The notes under the pieces are model-generated. The model was not told where the DNA came from and made no database searches. It was given only the letters and a program-made list of their open reading frames with translations. Made by a program: the position numbers and the translations under genes. 6,696 bases of DNA from a virus (taxonomy: Duplodnaviria > Heunggongvirae > Uroviricota > Caudoviricetes): IMG/VR virus record IMGVR_UViG_2606217117_000014; one strand, written 5' to 3'. Below, piece by piece: positions 2 to 6,696 of the stretch. Numbering within the stretch: the stretch's first letter is position 1; each line of letters opens with the position of its first letter.

Positions 2-352
2 CCGCCACAGGAAGAGACGGTGGTCAGCATTGCCGTTGATCCTGAGTCTCCGGAATCTTTCATGAAACGACCTAAACGTCGCCGCTGGGTTAACGAGAAA
101 TACACACGCTGGGTGAAGACACAGCCGTGTGCGTGTTGTGGTAAGCCAGCCGACGATCCCCATCACCTGATTGGTCATGGTCAGGGCGGAATGGGGACAA
201 AATCTCACGATATTTTCACGCTACCGCTGTGTCGGGAGCATCACAACGAGCTTCATGCGGATCCTCTGGCGTTCGAAGAAAAGCATGGTTCTCAGGTTGA
301 TTTAATTTTTCGTTTTCTTGATCACGCCTTTGCAACTGGCGTGCTTGGGTAA
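2..352 (+). CDS. NinG/DUF968-like prophage protein with Cys/His-rich HNH-type motif; C-terminal fragment, 5' end lies outside the window
   Basis: Frame is open from window start to TAA at 350-352. Translation carries CACCGK...HHLIGH...HD...CREHHNELH, a zinc-binding HNH-like pattern. Sits immediately upstream of rusA as in lambdoid nin regions. Family assignment is from memory, not a search. Confidence 0.55.
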   Translation, partial: PPQEETVVSIAVDPESPESFMKRPKRRRWVNEKYTRWVKTQPCACCGKPADDPHHLIGHGQGGMGTKSHDIFTLPLCREHHNELHADPLAFEEKHGSQVDLIFRFLDHAFATGVLG

Positions 353-364
353 AAGAGGTGACTG

Positions 365-739
365 ATGCTCATAGATTTGGTTTTACCTTACCCGCCGACG
401 GTGAACACTTACTGGCGACGCCGTGGCAGCACATATTTTATCTCGGAGGAGGGAAAGCGTTATCGCCGGGCTGTGGCGCTTATTGTTCGCCAGCAGCGGC
501 TGAAATTAAGCCTGTCCGGAAGGCTGGCGATAAAGGTGATTGCAGAGCCACCGGATAAGCGTCGTCGCGACCTGGACAATATCCTGAAAGCACCGCTGGA
601 TGCGCTGACGCATGCGGGAGTGTTAATGGACGATGAGCAGTTTGATGAAATCAATATCGTTCGTGGTCAGCCAGTATCTGGTGGACGTCTGGGGGTGAAG
701 ATTTACCCCATAATGCATGAAGAGCAGGTCAAAAAATGA
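365..739 (+). CDS. rusA: RusA-family Holliday junction resolvase (lambdoid prophage endodeoxyribonuclease)
   Basis: 124 aa. Contains PPDKRRRDLDNILKAPLDALTHAG, matching the recalled RusA catalytic block (DRRRRDLDN...FDALT). N-terminal LPYPPTVNTYW parallels RusA LPWPPSNNRYY. SD-like AGAGGTGA lies 5-6 nt before the ATG. Confidence 0.85.
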   Translation: MLIDLVLPYPPTVNTYWRRRGSTYFISEEGKRYRRAVALIVRQQRLKLSLSGRLAIKVIAEPPDKRRRDLDNILKAPLDALTHAGVLMDDEQFDEINIVRGQPVSGGRLGVKIYPIMHEEQVKK

Positions 740-1557
740 AACTGGAAGATTTACCGAAATACTACTCCCCAAAATCCCCTGGCCTGACCGATGCATCGGC
801 CTCAACGTCAAAAGATGCGCTGAGTATCACTGATGTGATGGCCGCGCAGGGCATGACACAGAATCGGGCTGAGATGGGTTTTTCTGCGTTCCTGGGGAAA
901 ATGGGCATCAGTATGAATGACAGGGTGCGGGCAACAGAATTACTGGCAGATTATGCACTCAGTCGGTGCGATCGTGTGGCGGCGTTGAGAAAACTTCCGG
1001 CAGAAATAAAACCGGTAGTGATGCGCATTATGGCTTCGTACGCTTTTGAGGATTATGCCCGCAGCGCAGCGAGTAAAAAGCAGTGCCCTTGTTGCTATGG
1101 GGAAAAATTTATTGAAAGCATAGTTTTTACAAACAAGGTCCAGTATCCGGATGGTAAGCCGCCGGTATGGGCAAAGTGTACGAAAGGTGTGTATCCGTCT
1201 TACTGGGAAGAATGGAAAAAAGTCAGGGAGGTGGTAAAAGTTGCCTGTCCGGAGTGTGGCGGAAAGGGTGAGGTTTCCACCGCCTGTAAGGATTGCCGTG
1301 GGCGTGGTGTCGCCATTCACCGTGAAGAGTCGGTAAAACGTGGTATGCCTGTTATCAGAGACTGCCAGCGTTGTGGTGGTCGTGGCTATGAAAGACTACC
1401 ATCAACGGAGGCATTTAATGCTATATGCGAGGTGACAAACCAGATAACACGCGCGTCATGGGAAAAAACAGTTAAGAAATTCTATGATGCGCTGGTGACC
1501 CGGTTTGATATTGAAGAAGCATGGGCTGAGCGGCAGTTAAAAAAGGTAACTAGGTAA
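736..1557 (+). CDS. Late-gene antitermination protein Q (QuuQ/Q-like) with DnaJ-type CxxCxGxG zinc-finger repeats
   Basis: 273 aa. Start ATG overlaps the rusA stop (ATGA at 736-739). Lies directly upstream of a lambda-like pR'/tR' pair. N-terminus MKLEDLPKYYSPKSP resembles recalled Qin QuuQ. Three repeats CPECGGKG, CKDCRGRG, CQRCGGRG. Confidence 0.75.
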   Translation: MKLEDLPKYYSPKSPGLTDASASTSKDALSITDVMAAQGMTQNRAEMGFSAFLGKMGISMNDRVRATELLADYALSRCDRVAALRKLPAEIKPVVMRIMASYAFEDYARSAASKKQCPCCYGEKFIESIVFTNKVQYPDGKPPVWAKCTKGVYPSYWEEWKKVREVVKVACPECGGKGEVSTACKDCRGRGVAIHREESVKRGMPVIRDCQRCGGRGYERLPSTEAFNAICEVTNQITRASWEKTVKKFYDALVTRFDIEEAWAERQLKKVTR

Positions 1558-1562
1558 CAAGG

Positions 1563-1604
1563 TTGATTTTTCCGGAATCTGTGGTAAATTCGTCATAACG
1601 ATGG
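1563..1604 (+). promoter_or_regulatory. pR'-like late promoter with Q-dependent pause element
   Basis: -35 TTGATT (1563-1568), 16-nt spacer, -10 TAAATT (1585-1590). Six nt later AACGATGGG (1596-1604), the same arrangement as recalled lambda pR' (TAAATT-TGACTC-AACGATGGG). Confidence 0.6.
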
Positions 1605-1638
1605 GCCTTTTATGCCTGACGTTAGAAGAGTTTCTACA

Positions 1639-1664
1639 ACCCGCCGCCGAGCGGGTTTTTTATT
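1639..1664 (+). terminator. tR'-like intrinsic terminator
   Basis: Stem ACCCGC (1639-1644) pairs with GCGGGT (1651-1656), 6-nt loop, then TTTTTTATT. About 65 nt downstream of the predicted pR' start. Confidence 0.65.
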
Positions 1665-1691
1665 GCGGAATTAATTACGGACCGTTATTAT
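1663..1691 (+). promoter_or_regulatory. Candidate sigma70 promoter for the tRNA genes
   Basis: TTGCGG (1663-1668), 17-nt spacer, TATTAT (1686-1691). Predicted start falls about 7-9 nt before the tRNA 5' end. Motif match only. Confidence 0.3.
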
Positions 1692-1700
1692 TCTGCTCCC

Positions 1701-1776
1701 GGCCCTTTAGCTCAGTGGTGAGAGCGAGCGACTCATAATCGCCAGGTCGCTGGTTCAAATCCAGCAAGGGCCACCA
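1701..1776 (+). tRNA. tRNA-Ile2 (anticodon CAU, lysidine-type; tRNA-Met not excluded), ileZ-like as in Stx phages
   Basis: Hand-folded cloverleaf: acceptor GGCCCTT/AAGGGCC, D stem GCTC/GAGC, anticodon loop CTCATAA, T arm GCTGG-TTCAAAT-CCAGC, discriminator A, encoded CCA. Close to recalled E. coli ileX. Confidence 0.85.
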
Positions 1777-1876
1777 TCACAAACCGCCATTAGCTTATCA
1801 GGAAGAGCAGACGACGCGATAACAGGGTTGTTGGTGCGGGGGCGGGTCCCCGATGGCGGTCCATTATCGGTATTCA

Positions 1877-1950
1877 GCGTTGTTAGCTCAGCCGGACAGA
1901 GCAATTGCCTTCTAAGCAATCGGTCACTGGTTCGAATCCAGTACAGCGCG
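1877..1950 (+). tRNA. tRNA-Arg (anticodon UCU, reads AGA/AGG), argN/argO-like
   Basis: Acceptor GCGTTGT/ACAGCGC (one G-U pair), D stem GCTC/GAGC, anticodon stem ATTGC/GCAAT with loop CTTCTAA, T arm ACTGG-TTCGAAT-CCAGT, discriminator G. No encoded CCA. Confidence 0.8.
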
Positions 1951-2090
1951 CTATATTCATTCTTCCAGATTCCTTCCGGCAGAGCCTTATACTGAAATAT
2001 ACCTGGCTCAGGATATTGTTGAAAATATTATATGTTTGTCAAAAATAAAAGTTCTGTTAAGTATTGATTGAGTGTTTGTTATACGGTCTA

Positions 2091-2417
2091 ATGGTTTTTT
2101 CAGCATTAAATATTTATCATTCATATGGTGTGGGTAGAGTGAATATTGATGAGGCGTCGGGGTGTTTCATCCTTAGGCAGCGTATTGATATAGTCAATGC
2201 AGCACGAGCAAAGGCCTTCAGCCGTTTGACAGTTTTGTTCTGTACTCCTGATCGTCTTTCGGGAAGAGACGTTATTATTCTGAATAGTGATGCTATTCAG
2301 AGGGTTTGCGATGAGTTCATGGTTGCTAATTCAGAATTATTTGCTCTTGTTCAGGAGTACAACAGAATAGCCAGGACCTGTGGTATGGATGAACTTCGGA
2401 TTACTCATCTGGGGTAG
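2091..2417 (+). CDS. Hypothetical protein, ~108 aa from ATG 2091 (117 aa if TTG 2064 is used), unknown function
   Basis: Open frame to TAG 2415-2417. Candidate promoter TTGTCA (2036-2041), 16-17 nt spacer, TAAGTA/AAGTAT (2058-2064) just upstream. No convincing SD. Occupies the position of stx genes in Stx phages. No recognisable motif. Confidence 0.4.
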   Translation: MVFSALNIYHSYGVGRVNIDEASGCFILRQRIDIVNAARAKAFSRLTVLFCTPDRLSGRDVIILNSDAIQRVCDEFMVANSELFALVQEYNRIARTCGMDELRITHLG

Positions 2418-2497
2418 ATACATATCTGGATTATCACTTGTTACGGTAAAAAGTGATTGCTTACTGTTTTTGTGAGTGGCATTGCAGCAGCCGGATA

Positions 2498-2584
2498 ATG
2501 TCAGTGCTGGCTGACGGTGTGCTGGTGGCGGGTGTGGTGGTTGTTGCTTTCCCGTTGCTGAAAAAGAAAACGCCAGACTGTTAG
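2498..2584 (+). CDS. Candidate small hydrophobic peptide, 28 aa (MSVLADGVLVAGVVVVAFPLLKKKTPDC)
   Basis: ATG 2498 to TAG 2582-2584. One predicted transmembrane-like segment followed by KKK. Weak SD (GGA about 5 nt upstream). Could be a chance ORF in GT-rich DNA. Confidence 0.2.
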   Translation: MSVLADGVLVAGVVVVAFPLLKKKTPDC

Positions 2585-2808
2585 CCGGGTATCAGTTAGC
2601 GGGAGAAATTTTTAAATACTTCACAATTCAGGCGGTTGACTGTTGTCTGGTTTGCGGGGAGTTTGTTAAAAGAAACTGGCATGGTGAATCCCCCTGTGCG
2701 GAGGGGCAATCAGCGAGTAGGTATATGGGATAATCGCGGATTCAGGTGCTGGTACTGAATTCACCGGGAGGCACCCGGCACCATGCAATGGCACATAGCG
2801 CCACTCTC

Positions 2809-2838
2809 CAGCCCCTCTCCGGAGGGGCTGTTTATATT
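2809..2838 (+). terminator. Rho-independent terminator, plus-strand orientation
   Basis: 9-bp GC-rich stem CAGCCCCTC (2809-2817) / GAGGGGCTG (2822-2830), 4-nt loop, followed by TTTATATTGATTTT. The reverse-strand flank is not U-rich. Confidence 0.6.
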
Positions 2839-2861
2839 GATTTTGTCAGATGTGAGTAAAC

Positions 2862-2895
2862 TCCTTATGGACTTTGTTGTTTTAGTCCATAAGGA
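2862..2895. repeat. Perfect 12-bp inverted repeat with 10-bp spacer (TCCTTATGGACT-N10-AGTCCATAAGGA)
   Basis: Read directly from the sequence. Overlaps the last about 10 codons and the stop of the minus-strand gene 2865-3200. Confidence 0.75.
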
Positions 2896-3200
2896 CATAT
2901 TTGCAGAGTGCAACGGTTATTAAAGCATTCATTCAATACGTTATCTGTATTTGTAGGACATTCCTGGCTGTTTTTGATTAAATTCCAGAATGTTTTATTG
3001 AATGGTGCTACGTTGTAAATGGTTACAGGTAGCACTTTGTTATTGAGCATGATACCTGTGTGAGTCAGTGTAAATATACTTTCAGGAGGTAAGAAAGCAT
3101 CCGATTGATACCAGATTATTAATTTTATTTTACTCCATATGACTGAAAAAGATATTCCGCATGATGGCTGGATAACTGTATCAATCACAATCCACTTCAT
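2865..3200 (-). CDS. Hypothetical Cys-containing protein, 111 aa, AT-rich moron gene convergent to the late operon
   Basis: Strong SD AAGGAA 6 nt upstream of ATG (plus 3198-3200). A 111-codon open frame in DNA that looks very AT-rich by eye is unlikely by chance. Translation: [18 protein letters not shown]...[10 protein letters not shown]. No recognisable family. Confidence 0.55.
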
Positions 3201-3240
3201 TTAGTTTCCTTGTTTATGTCTTGCTGGTGATGTTCTGAAA

Positions 3241-3267
3241 AGTATAAATGATATTTTTGAATGTAAA
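3241..3267 (-). promoter_or_regulatory. Candidate sigma70 promoter for the minus-strand 111-aa gene
   Basis: Minus strand reads TTTACA (plus 3262-3267), 15-nt spacer, TATACT (plus 3241-3246), about 35 nt upstream of the RBS. Spacer is shorter than optimal. Confidence 0.3.
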
Positions 3268-3460
3268 CCATAGAGCAGAATTATTTTTCTGATGTTGTTT
3301 ATTGTTTATTTAAATGCAGGGTGGTTTATATCTCGTCTTGTAGTTTATCCATGCATATCTGCTTGATGATGAGGTTTTTATTTAAGGTATGGTTTTGTGT
3401 TTTTTCTGTATTACATGTCAGGTATTTTAAAGAATTATTTTTCAGATGGTGGAAAGAACC

Positions 3461-5422
3461 ATGGCATTTAAACACTATGATGTTGTCAGGGCGGCATCGC
3501 CGTCAGACCTTGCGAAACGACTGACACAAAAACTGAAGGAGGGGTGGCAGCCATTTGGCAGTCCGGTGGCCATCACGCCTTATACCCTGATGCAGGCCAT
3601 TGCGGCGGAAGGTGATGTCACCACACCTGTGGTGGTGAAGCCGTCGGATGGAGAAGGCGCAGTTATCAGCACCACCAGCAACCCGGAGTATTACTTTGTT
3701 GTTGCCCTGGCCGGGCAGTCAAACGGTATGGCGTATGGTGAAGGGCTTCCGCTGCCGGAGACATATGACCGTCCGGACCCGCGTATTAAACAGCTGGCGC
3801 GTCGCAGCACTGTCACGCCGGGTGGTGCGTCCTGTAACTACAATGACATTATTCCTGCGGACCACTGCCTGCATGATGTTCAGGATTTGAGTAAGTTTTC
3901 ACACCCGAAAGCCAGCGCAGCTCAGTATGGATGCGTGGGGCAGGGATTACATATCGCGAAGAAATTGTTGCCGTTTATTCCGGCGAATGCCGGTATTCTT
4001 CTGGTTCCGTGCTGCCGTGGTGGTTCTGCATTTTTGGCGGGCGATGAAGGTACCTTCAGCGAATCCACCGGCGCAAGCGAGACCTCGGCACGCTGGGGTG
4101 TTGATAAGCCACTGTACAAGGACCTGCTTACCCGTACTCAGGCCGCACTGAAGGCCAACCCTAAAAATATTCTGCTTGCAGTGGTCTGGATGCAGGGCGA
4201 GTTTGATTTGAAACAGGGTGCATACGCCACTCAGCCGGGGCTGTTTGATTCCATGGTGGAAAAATATCGTTCTGACCTGTCGGAATTCGGAGGTCAGTGT
4301 CTCGGGGGCTCTCCGTCATCGGTTCCCTGGATTTGTGGCGACACGACCTACTACTGGAAGCAGACTTATTCTTCGCAATACGATGCGGTGTATGGTGCAT
4401 ACAAGACGAAATCCGCAAAAAAAATCTTCTTTGTGCCGTTTATGACGGATGAAAACGGGCGAAATGTGGGTACCAACGAGCCGTCAGAAGATCCGGATGT
4501 TGCGGATATTGGGTATTACGGAGGCGGTGGTCGAACGGACGCCAAAACCTGGACGACGGCCGACCGTAAAACGCATTTTGGATCATGGGCACGTCGTGGG
4601 ATTATTTCCGACCGTCTGGCAACGGCGATTCTTGTGCATGCCGGGAGAAACGCTGAATTCATTACCGGAAAACAGCCTGATACGGTGAAGCCCACCGGAC
4701 CTTCCGGTGAAGGTACGGAGAGAGAGCCGGAAGCCCCGGTCAGTAACCGAACCCTGATGAGTCTGCTGGCGTCCGGCGAAGACCTGGCATCACAGGGCTG
4801 GCGCTATTATCACAAACCGGCGAGCGGAGACAATGTTAACAAAAACATTGCTGAAGCGGTGGTCAGTGATGCGGGGGCTACGGGAGGTAAGGCCCTGCAA
4901 CTGAATAAACCGGAAAACCACATCTGGTTTCTGGAGCATGATGCAGCCGGACAGGGAGTGGAGTTACTGAAGAAGGGGGGACGTGTGAGCGTACGGTTTA
5001 AGTTGCCGGGTTCACTGGTGCCGAATCAGTTTGCCCTGGGCATTTACTGGCAGTTGTCGTCCCTGCCGGAGGGAGTGACGCTGGCAGAGGAAGGCAACGA
5101 CATGCTGATGTCCTTCTTTCTGCAGACGGATGCGACGAACCTGAACGCGATGCACCACAAGAAGCCGAATGCGAAGCTGGAAACGTTCGGGGTCTTTGAT
5201 AACGGATGGCACACACTGGCTTTTGAGTTTGCCGGAAACAACAGCATTCAGGTGACGCCGGTACTGGATGAGAAACGGGGGACGCCGTTCACACTGGTGA
5301 AATCTCCGGCATCAGGGGCGGCGGACAAACTGCAACTGACAGGCATATCAAAGGCGGCGACATATACGCTGCTGATTGACAGTGTGAAGGTGGAAGTGAA
5401 CAACGCGGACATCGCGGCATGA
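3461..5422 (+). CDS. nanS: Prophage sialate O-acetylesterase, NanS-p type (N-terminal DUF1737-like region, SASA/SGNH esterase domain, C-terminal extension)
   Basis: 653 aa from ATG 3461, which has SD GGTGGA 7 nt upstream; the ATG at 3446 has no SD. Block VVALAGQSNGMAYGEG carries the GQSN serine motif of the sialate O-acetylesterase family. Size and position match recalled nanS-p genes downstream of stx. Confidence 0.8.
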   Translation: MAFKHYDVVRAASPSDLAKRLTQKLKEGWQPFGSPVAITPYTLMQAIAAEGDVTTPVVVKPSDGEGAVISTTSNPEYYFVVALAGQSNGMAYGEGLPLPETYDRPDPRIKQLARRSTVTPGGASCNYNDIIPADHCLHDVQDLSKFSHPKASAAQYGCVGQGLHIAKKLLPFIPANAGILLVPCCRGGSAFLAGDEGTFSESTGASETSARWGVDKPLYKDLLTRTQAALKANPKNILLAVVWMQGEFDLKQGAYATQPGLFDSMVEKYRSDLSEFGGQCLGGSPSSVPWICGDTTYYWKQTYSSQYDAVYGAYKTKSAKKIFFVPFMTDENGRNVGTNEPSEDPDVADIGYYGGGGRTDAKTWTTADRKTHFGSWARRGIISDRLATAILVHAGRNAEFITGKQPDTVKPTGPSGEGTEREPEAPVSNRTLMSLLASGEDLASQGWRYYHKPASGDNVNKNIAEAVVSDAGATGGKALQLNKPENHIWFLEHDAAGQGVELLKKGGRVSVRFKLPGSLVPNQFALGIYWQLSSLPEGVTLAEEGNDMLMSFFLQTDATNLNAMHHKKPNAKLETFGVFDNGWHTLAFEFAGNNSIQVTPVLDEKRGTPFTLVKSPASGAADKLQLTGISKAATYTLLIDSVKVEVNNADIAA

Positions 5423-5558: not shown

Positions 5559-5741
5559 ATGACATTTATTCATCAGGTAATGCTGTACTTCTGTATGGCA
5601 GTCTGTGTTATGTATCTTCTTTCGGGTGGGTACAGGGCAGTGCGCGATTTCTGGCGCAGGCAGATTGATAAAAGGGCCGCTGAGAGAATCAGCGCCAGTC
5701 AGTCAGCCGGAAGCAAACCCGAAGATCCGCTCATTCCGTAG
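5559..5741 (+). CDS. Hypothetical small membrane protein, 60 aa
   Basis: ATG 5559. One hydrophobic segment (IHQVMLYFCMAVCVMYLLSGGY) followed by a basic/charged tail. Weak SD. An overlapping alternative frame from 5605 is also open, so the call is uncertain. Confidence 0.3.
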   Translation: MTFIHQVMLYFCMAVCVMYLLSGGYRAVRDFWRRQIDKRAAERISASQSAGSKPEDPLIP

Positions 5742-5778: not shown

Positions 5779-5827
5779 ATGTCAGAAATCACATCCCTGG
5801 TCACTGCTGAGGCAGTGAAGGAAGTCC
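5779..5827 (+). pseudogene. 5' fragment (16 codons, MSEITSLVTAEAVKEV) of a gene interrupted by the IS insertion
   Basis: ATG 5779 in an open frame that runs straight into the IS terminus at 5828. The ORF-track continuation past 5828 is IS sequence read in the wrong context. Confidence 0.25.
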
Positions 5828-6696
5828 TGAACCGCCCCGGGTTTCCTGGAGAGTATTTTATCTGTGAACTCAGGCTGCCAGATCATCGTTTCCGATGGAA
5901 GCATAATAAGCTTTTTCTGCTTCTGCCGGAGGAGTATGGCCCAGCCTTTCCAGCAATCGTCGATTGTTATACCAGTCCACCCACGTGAGTGTGGCCAGTT
6001 CCACTTCTGCACGGTTTTTCCAGCTCTTACGGTGTATTACCTCCGCTTTGTAAAGACCATTGATGCTCTCCGCCATCGCGTTGTCATACGAGTCGCCTGT
6101 ACTTCCTGTTGATGCCAGTAATCCGGCTTCCTTAAGCCGCTGTGTGTAGGCCAGCGATACATACTGAGAACCTTTATCACTGTGATGGACCGTGCCGGAC
6201 GGTCGACGGGCCCATAACGCCTGCTCCAGTGCATCCAGCACGAATGTCGTCTCCATGGACGATGAGACCCGCCACCCCACAATGTATCCGGCAAACACAT
6301 CAATGATGAACGCCACATAGACGAAGCCCTGCCATGTGCTGACGTAAGTAAAATCAGCCACCCACAGCTGGTCAGGTCGTTCTGCCACGAACTGACGGTT
6401 TACGCGGTCGCCTGCGGCAACGGCTTTCCGGCTGATGGTCGTACGGACCTTTTTACCCCGGAGAACACCGGCAAGTCCCATAACCGCCATGAGACGTGCC
6501 ACAGTGCATCTGGCCACTCTGATACCTTCCCGTAACAACTGACGCCAGACTTTACGCACACCGTATACCTTGTGATTTTCATCGTATACGCGCTGTATCT
6601 CTTTCTTCAGCCAGTCATCGCGCTGCGCACGGGCACTGCGTTTATCCGGATGATGTCGCTGTTGCTGACAGTGGTAATACGTTGACGGGGCAATAT
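5828..6696 (-). mobile_element. IS3-family insertion sequence (IS629-like), partial; runs off the right edge of the window
   Basis: Terminus TGAACCGCCCCGGGTTTCCTGGAGAG at 5828 matches the recalled IS629/IS3-family terminal inverted repeat. Encloses a DDE transposase OrfB on the minus strand ending 42 bp inside the end. Confidence 0.8.
5870..6696 (-). CDS. IS3-family transposase OrfB (DDE integrase core), N-terminal part outside the window
   Basis: Frame is open from the window edge (hand translation 6560-6696 has no stop) to TGA at plus 5870-5872. Motifs WVADFTYV, HHSDKGSQY, DSYDNAMAES, YKAE are typical DDE transposase blocks. Confidence 0.85.
   Translation of the reverse strand, partial: IAPSTYYHCQQQRHHPDKRSARAQRDDWLKKEIQRVYDENHKVYGVRKVWRQLLREGIRVARCTVARLMAVMGLAGVLRGKKVRTTISRKAVAAGDRVNRQFVAERPDQLWVADFTYVSTWQGFVYVAFIIDVFAGYIVGWRVSSSMETTFVLDALEQALWARRPSGTVHHSDKGSQYVSLAYTQRLKEAGLLASTGSTGDSYDNAMAESINGLYKAEVIHRKSWKNRAEVELATLTWVDWYNNRRLLERLGHTPPAEAEKAYYASIGNDDLAA

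Follow-up and report, generated by a model that had tools for sequence, protein, structure and literature searches.

The open frame that follows the tRNA genes in this prophage is a genuine small accessory gene of an unremarkable kind, and it can be said with high confidence that positions 2139–2417 encode a protein of 92 residues translated from a GTG start at 2139. The stretch of DNA analysed (6,696 nt; hereafter the window) comes from a lambdoid prophage, of which it is the late-regulatory region, and its features are collected in Table 1. A first-pass annotation made from the sequence had described an open frame of 108–117 codons ending at the TAG at 2417, preceded by a promoter-like element and located where stx2A normally begins in Stx2 phages. 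The frame is open and it codes, but the coding sequence is shorter than was proposed; the position relative to stx2A is upheld by comparison with Stx2a phages, and the promoter is not.

Table 1. Features of the window, with positions counted from its first nucleotide
Feature	Position	Strand	Basis or remark
DUF968 gene	20–352		
RusA	365–739		
Q antiterminator	736–1557	+	PF03589, E 2e-54
pR' (probable late promoter)	1562–1589	+	TTGATT, 16 nt, TAAATT; directly 3' of the Q gene
tR' terminator	1638–1657	+	Terminator scan
tRNA cassette (Ile-CAT, degenerate middle copy, Arg-TCT)	1701–1951	+	
TTGTCA / TAAGTAT element	2036–2041 / 2058–2064	+	Spacer 16–17 nt; not supported as a promoter
In-frame extension (TTG 2064, ATG 2091)	2064–2138	+	Most likely untranslated leader
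Conserved leader, ~40 nt	2098–2138	+	Homology with L005 starts at ~2098
92-aa CDS	2139–2417	+	GTG start; TAG stop at 2415–2417
DUF3927 / TciB-like membrane-protein gene, 43 aa	2453–2584	+	PGAP; phrog_1470, E 8e-13
STnc100 sRNA	2650–2839	+	RF02076, 132 bits (gathering score 47)
IraM-like anti-adaptor gene	2865–3200	-	NF007393, E 4e-48; phrog_4407
NanS-p-type SASA esterase	3446–5422		
DUF1378 gene	5559–5741		
IS3-family element	from 5829		rve-domain transposase on the minus strand, 5870–6559 and beyond

Coding status, start codon and transcription

That the frame codes for protein, and that it does so from a start near GTG 2139, can be read directly from its diverged copies. Among the window and two relatives (L003, 56% identical, and L005, 63% identical), dN/dS is 0.23–0.31 in frame as against 0.78–1.39 in the two shifted frames, which accumulate 4–16 stops in the diverged copies; these share 68–70% nucleotide identity and differ mostly at third codon positions. 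The AT-rich composition of the region, its weak start and the lack of a Pfam or NCBIfam family might suggest non-coding DNA in which the frame is open by chance, or a region that acts as RNA, but such dN/dS values at such divergence, a protein length held constant in six genera and a confident AlphaFold2 (AF2) model make this extremely improbable. The idea of an RNA element within the leader was discarded, since Rfam returned no match over 1952–2620 and the leader folds no better than shuffled sequences (z -0.32).

Relatives of the protein are mostly 91–99 residues long (a few reach 106–110 from an upstream ATG), and all of them align to residues 26–117 of the 117-residue translation, in a core alignment of 21 sequences that is free of gaps. 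In the window, in L003 and in L005 alike, the copy opens with a conserved GTG, ends at the same stop position and measures exactly 279 nt. In L005 the motif AGGAG lies four bases 5' of the conserved GTG, and the Citrobacter (L007), Serratia (L014) and Morganella (L017) members have AAGGG or AAAGGA preceding an ATG; the ribosome-binding region before the GTG of the window, GGTGTGGGTAGA, is weaker than those of the relatives and presents GGTGTGGG where L005, which also starts with GTG, has AGGAG. Stops occur in frame 2–29 codons upstream of the aligned start in L005, in L007 and in the plasmid-borne relative L010. The start is therefore placed at GTG 2139 on the strength of the family, the NCBI gene calls that begin MNIDE..., these upstream stops, and polymorphism that includes a deletion at 2095. 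The doubt that had been expressed about the start codon was thus justified, as was the remark that no good Shine–Dalgarno sequence is present, which holds for both TTG 2064 and ATG 2091.

Polymorphism was surveyed in 82 near-identical copies drawn from IMG/VR and from E. coli. Within 2139–2417 there are 10 variable sites with 11 changes, six of them synonymous (binomial p 0.022), and not one of the 82 copies carries an indel or a stop in this interval; diversity is 3.6 per 100 nt in the coding sequence vs 8–11.5 in the flanks (Fisher p 0.012). In 2064–2138, by contrast, five of six variable sites would change the encoded residue, diversity reaches 8.0 per 100 nt, and in one copy (L031) a deletion of 1 nt at 2095 breaks the 108- or 117-codon frame while leaving the 92-codon frame intact. 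The first-pass annotation had proposed aligning the locus across prophages for codon-level conservation, and had named frameshifts or stops in homologous regions as evidence against coding; the alignment divides the frame in two, with 2139–2417 conserved and undisrupted and 2064–2138 disrupted and resembling non-coding DNA.

The same data bear on a further possibility, in which the family is real but the allele in E. coli is in decay or scarcely translated and travels with its cassette as a remnant. Decay would accord with a Shine–Dalgarno sequence that is degenerate relative to that of L005, with the omission of the gene from complete genomes by PGAP, and with a degenerate middle tRNA and a nearby IS element that suggest a decaying prophage. 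It appears unlikely given the intact frame in all 82 copies, the synonymous excess, the reduction of diversity below that of the flanks, and the identity of at least 98.5% seen in almost every one of the 1186 complete E. coli genomes with the region.

As read from the sequence, the frame runs from TTG 2064 (117 codons) or ATG 2091 (108 codons) to the TAG, and a protein of 108–117 residues, expressed from a sigma-70 promoter of its own at 2036–2064 by analogy with the stx promoter, has to be weighed. Public gene callers have often chosen ATG 2091 or TTG 2064, so that forms of 92, 108 and 117 residues are all deposited, the 108-residue form on more than 1000 contigs; the phrog_2873 profile is likewise 108 positions long, and the extension in L003 is also open in frame and begins with the same TTGATTGA. 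However, ATG 2091 is AAT in L003 and has no Shine–Dalgarno sequence, alignment of the extension with L003 DNA requires frame-breaking indels of 2 and 1 nt within 2064–2138, and L005 has no sequence alignable with the window upstream of ~2098. Together with the upstream stops, the mostly non-synonymous polymorphism, the deletion in one copy, and an extension that AF2 leaves disordered (residues 1–23 of the 117-residue form at pLDDT below 50), this makes the longer protein quite improbable, and 2064–2138 is most likely an untranslated leader. The profile owes its length of 108 to the inclusion of an N-terminal extension (positions 1–16) that we consider untranslated. Since three start codons have been deposited, assigning the start to GTG 2139 usefully corrects the annotation.

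The promoter-like element itself, TTGTCA and TAAGTAT at 2036–2064, can be found as described, but as a promoter it is weak, does no better than chance and lacks conservation. A sigma-70 promoter was defined here by four or more matching positions out of six in both hexamers, a spacer of 16–18 nt and conservation in relatives; the -10 of this element matches TATAAT at 2–3 of 6 positions, and the element is missing from the output of a consensus scan that returned six promoter-like sites in 1500–3500 as against 5.4 ± 2.3 in shuffled sequence. An insertion of 17 nt between the hexamers destroys their spacing in L003, and the element is absent from L005. A -10 at 2058–2064 would moreover start transcription near 2071, and would therefore exclude TTG 2064 as a start codon.

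The source of the gene's transcription is most likely the Q-dependent pR' upstream of the tRNA genes, from which the gene would be transcribed mainly by read-through, and its expression on the late transcript is probable. Between tR', which ends at 1657, and the start at 2139, the scan found no other terminator on the plus strand. A terminator-like hairpin inside the coding sequence (2253–2271) is weak, with three GC pairs, overlaps the codons of a conserved loop, and is regarded as a chance occurrence. As a separate observation, pR' and tR' (1558–1664, plus strand) would yield a leader RNA of ~70 nt, like lambda 6S or the StxS-type transcript; the one Rfam match in this interval, Trp_leader (25 bits, E 0.08), is at chance level.

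The stx slot and its cassette

The proposed coincidence with the place of stx2A, immediately downstream of the tRNA genes, is borne out in that homology with Stx2a phages stops at 1966 and resumes at 2621. The tRNA cassette corresponds to ileZ-argN-argO of Stx2 phages (87% identity over window positions 1661–1966), and TTG 2064 lies 113 nt downstream of its last tRNA. In the phage Stx2a_1447 (AP012536), argO is followed after 92 nt by stx2A and then by stx2B, a homologue of the NanS-p gene, DUF1378, DUF826 and the holin; in Stx2a phage L020, the point at which homology resumes lies 46 nt after stx2B. The gap in homology at 1967–2620 therefore identifies the 92-aa gene and the DUF3927 gene as a cassette that stands in for stx2AB, of which the tRNA cassette is the upstream border, and the comparison gives precise bounds to the replacement. 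The DUF3927 gene accompanies the 92-aa gene in 81 of 83 related loci, and phage vB_EcoS-640R1, which has both flanks in common, lacks the 92-aa gene and has other small ORFs in the slot.

The stx2A-stx2B cassette of Stx2a phages thus occupies the same slot, with the same flanks and the same late-transcript context, and its downstream flank likewise consists of an STnc100-like region, a NanS-p esterase, DUF1378, DUF826 and the holin. The likeness is one of position: the 92-aa product has no sequence or fold relation to Shiga toxin, lacks a signal peptide and is no AB5 toxin. Shiga toxin A is recognized by a ribosome-inactivating (RIP) domain, a length of ~300 residues with a signal peptide, and an adjacent B-subunit gene; here there is no Pfam RIP match, the protein has 92 residues, and the gene downstream is DUF3927. 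These findings have no bearing on toxin production itself.

Lambdoid moron genes such as lambda bor and lom are non-essential accessory genes of the late operon, and a classic moron comes equipped with a promoter and a terminator. The 92-aa gene resembles bor and lom in being accessory, in lying in a late transcription unit and in its variable presence among phages, and differs from classic morons in that neither a promoter nor a terminator of its own is supported. We propose that it is an accessory (moron) gene on the late strand of a lambdoid prophage, placed between Q, the late promoter and the tRNA cassette on one side and the lysis genes on the other, and that with the adjacent DUF3927 gene it forms the cassette replacing stx2AB in this phage lineage. 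As a whole, with late read-through and the protein described below, this explanation is favoured with moderate confidence.

Several features of the surrounding region may be recorded in their own right. The STnc100 match terminates in an intrinsic terminator (2809–2830); a homologous region comes after stx2B in Stx2a phages, and STnc100 has been linked with the PasD sRNAs of Stx-type prophages in a 2026 preprint (10.64898/2026.05.13.724894). The IraM-like gene, carried on the prophage, runs against the late operon. The middle tRNA of the Ile/Arg/Arg cassette (1784–1863, plus strand) is degenerate in the window and is called by neither ARAGORN nor the Rfam tRNA model, whereas a 99%-identical genome (L001) has an intact tRNA-Arg at this position, with differences from the window throughout the anticodon and T arms. 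Similarity to this reference prophage stops at 5829, the onset of the IS3-family element, whose end sequence is TGAACCGCCCCGGG...; the insertion cuts off a DUF826 gene that starts at 5779 and is itself upstream of the holin.

Protein family, distribution and gene context

A first homology search with the 117-residue ORF returned 56%-identical relatives of the same length, and was extended in two steps, with a profile run against 1.8 billion representative proteins and with a word-indexed search that covered 5.8 billion. The homology and profile searches that had been suggested thus did find a protein family, though one whose members match residues 26–117 and not the full 117. The family is found in six genera (E. 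coli, Citrobacter, Salmonella, Serratia, Morganella and Xenorhabdus), and homologues with as little as 20% identity retain the same length. By profile comparison the protein belongs to the uncharacterised phage families phrog_2873 and phrog_4827: the 92-residue form matches the former at E 5.6e-58 (residues 1–92 against profile positions 17–108) and the latter at E 2.2e-5, the 117-residue translation matches them at E 4e-70 and E 4e-5, and among the 21 aligned relatives the family HMMs match 21 and 18, respectively. Members of these families share the size and late-operon location of the 92-aa gene, an example being Sb55 of Salmonella phage ST64B, which was found by tblastn with the Serratia member. 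Pfam and NCBIfam assign the ORF to no family; a RHIM domain was rejected at E 0.093, below the cut-off, and Pfam searches of nine family members gave scattered matches only (E >0.01).

The gene is already known, in that the exact 92-residue sequence is held at NCBI as 'MULTISPECIES: hypothetical protein [Enterobacteriaceae]'. The 90%-identity cluster to which this sequence is assigned has a representative of 149 residues and includes members named '50S ribosomal protein L9', which looks like a clustering artefact of the collection and not biology. Of 5426 complete E. coli genomes, 1186 carry the region, almost all of them with 98.5–100% identity, and none of the ~70 RefSeq records listed has the 92-aa gene annotated by PGAP, the DUF3927 gene alone being annotated under the match; the gene is of modest importance. 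A locus search with the single protein recovered one E. coli genome alone among species representatives, and mEp460_ev081 is the only sequenced phage that carries the region. In its deposit the plus-strand gene was missed, and a 38-aa antisense ORF is given at window positions 2008–2124 (minus strand; 4549–4665 of that record, L002). Literature searches on TciB, DUF3927 and prophage IraM turned up no mention of the 92-aa gene.

The synteny of the gene is retained across much of its family. Q and the holin gene flank it in E. coli (L005), Citrobacter (L007), Serratia (L014) and Morganella (L017), where it is always encoded on the late strand, and in ST64B Sb55 stands immediately after the lysis cassette and is preceded by a KilA-N protein; a conserved family of small proteins, helical in prediction, thus occupies a late-operon slot across several genera of Enterobacterales. 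The window, Serratia, one Morganella locus and the plasmid relatives all have tRNA genes 170–600 nt upstream of the family gene. A TerB-like gene and DUF3927 come after the family gene in L005 and L007, a YdeO/GadX-like AraC regulator comes before it in L003 and L005, and no partner gene was found to be universal across all contexts.

Predicted structure and possible function

With the 21-sequence alignment, AF2 models the protein at a pLDDT of 88.6 and a pTM of 0.75, with helices at residues 3–34 and 50–81, a conserved loop between them, which reads TPDR in the E. coli group, and a short tail at the C terminus. The model is that of a soluble antiparallel two-helix hairpin, in which, from the helix register, the invariant or near-invariant residues C9 and N75, and R23, N64 and E66, would lie opposite one another across the hairpin. 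Neither a transmembrane segment nor a signal peptide is predicted, and most members have a pI of 4.8–7, such that the protein would be neutral to mildly acidic, with two long antiparallel helices and a conserved joining loop.

Searches of the model with Foldseek against the PDB and viral structures (BFVD) found nothing at E <=0.001, the best values being 0.08 and 0.12, respectively, and the top matches (EmrA hairpins, prefoldin beta, the TraM anti-activator) are generic helical hairpins. TraM (PDB 2q0o) and the prefoldin beta subunits are similar in size and two-helix topology, with query-normalised TM-scores of 0.67–0.74, at non-significant Foldseek E-values of 0.1–0.6 and 10–17% identity. 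Helical hairpins recur in unrelated proteins, so this likeness is one of analogy and not of membership; and given a generic fold with E-values of at least 0.08, the structure yields no functional assignment. GapR/UPF0335 (E 0.11) and Rop (E 0.75) were rejected in a sequence-profile search of the PDB, and a relation to the neighbouring IraM was rejected on an hhalign probability of 0.07% and the lack of any NCBIfam match for the ORF.

There is some reason to consider a role in defence against phages or superinfection exclusion, or in a tellurite/colicin module of the TciA/TciB/TciC type, in that defence genes are frequent in prophage accessory slots and that TerB-like (TciA-like) and DUF3927 (TciB-like) genes often lie downstream. 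Such a role is nevertheless improbable. PADLOC gave no match for the window protein, and the matches of family members, which are confined to a few members, partial and at E 8e-4 or worse against HEC-06 and HEC-07 profiles of more than 550 residues, were rejected as marginal alignments of helical stretches. Size, gene order and the missing match to P1 led to the rejection of identity with TciC: TciC of P1 has only 35 residues, tciC comes after tciB and not before tciA, and P1 was never matched when three family members were compared by tblastn with 50,697 phage records. The TerB-like gene is moreover missing from the window, Serratia, Morganella and ST64B contexts.

With neither enzymatic nor membrane features apparent, the protein may, with low certainty, act by binding another protein, as a small modulator whose target would be a regulator of the host or of the phage. 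This role, which is proposed from the absence of other features, is tentative, and less probable than the alternatives to it combined; were the target a host regulator, the gene would add to the prophage cargo that rewires host stress responses. The presence of the IraM-like gene and, in L003 and L005, of the YdeO/GadX-like neighbours indicates that the slot collects host stress-response regulators. A still more specific and rather doubtful proposal builds on the fact that the gene shares its exchangeable slot with this AraC regulator, with the IraM-like anti-adaptor and with STnc100, and holds that the protein is a conserved small connector, of the anti-activator or anti-adaptor type, expressed by lambdoid prophages to re-tune a host stress regulator. 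If so, the stx slot of non-toxigenic prophages would be a dedicated bay for host-regulation cargo, and the 92-aa protein an undescribed member of that cargo.

Whatever its target, the role of the protein need not be specific to phages, since relatives at ~35% identity reside on E. coli plasmids beside K88-like fimbrial operons. In these plasmid contigs (L010–L013), which are of pig and cattle origin, the gene lies at 6001–6276, 1.2 kb from a PapB-regulated K88-like fimbrial operon and divergent from it, and a tRNA-Thr-like sequence is found 580 nt upstream of the relative.
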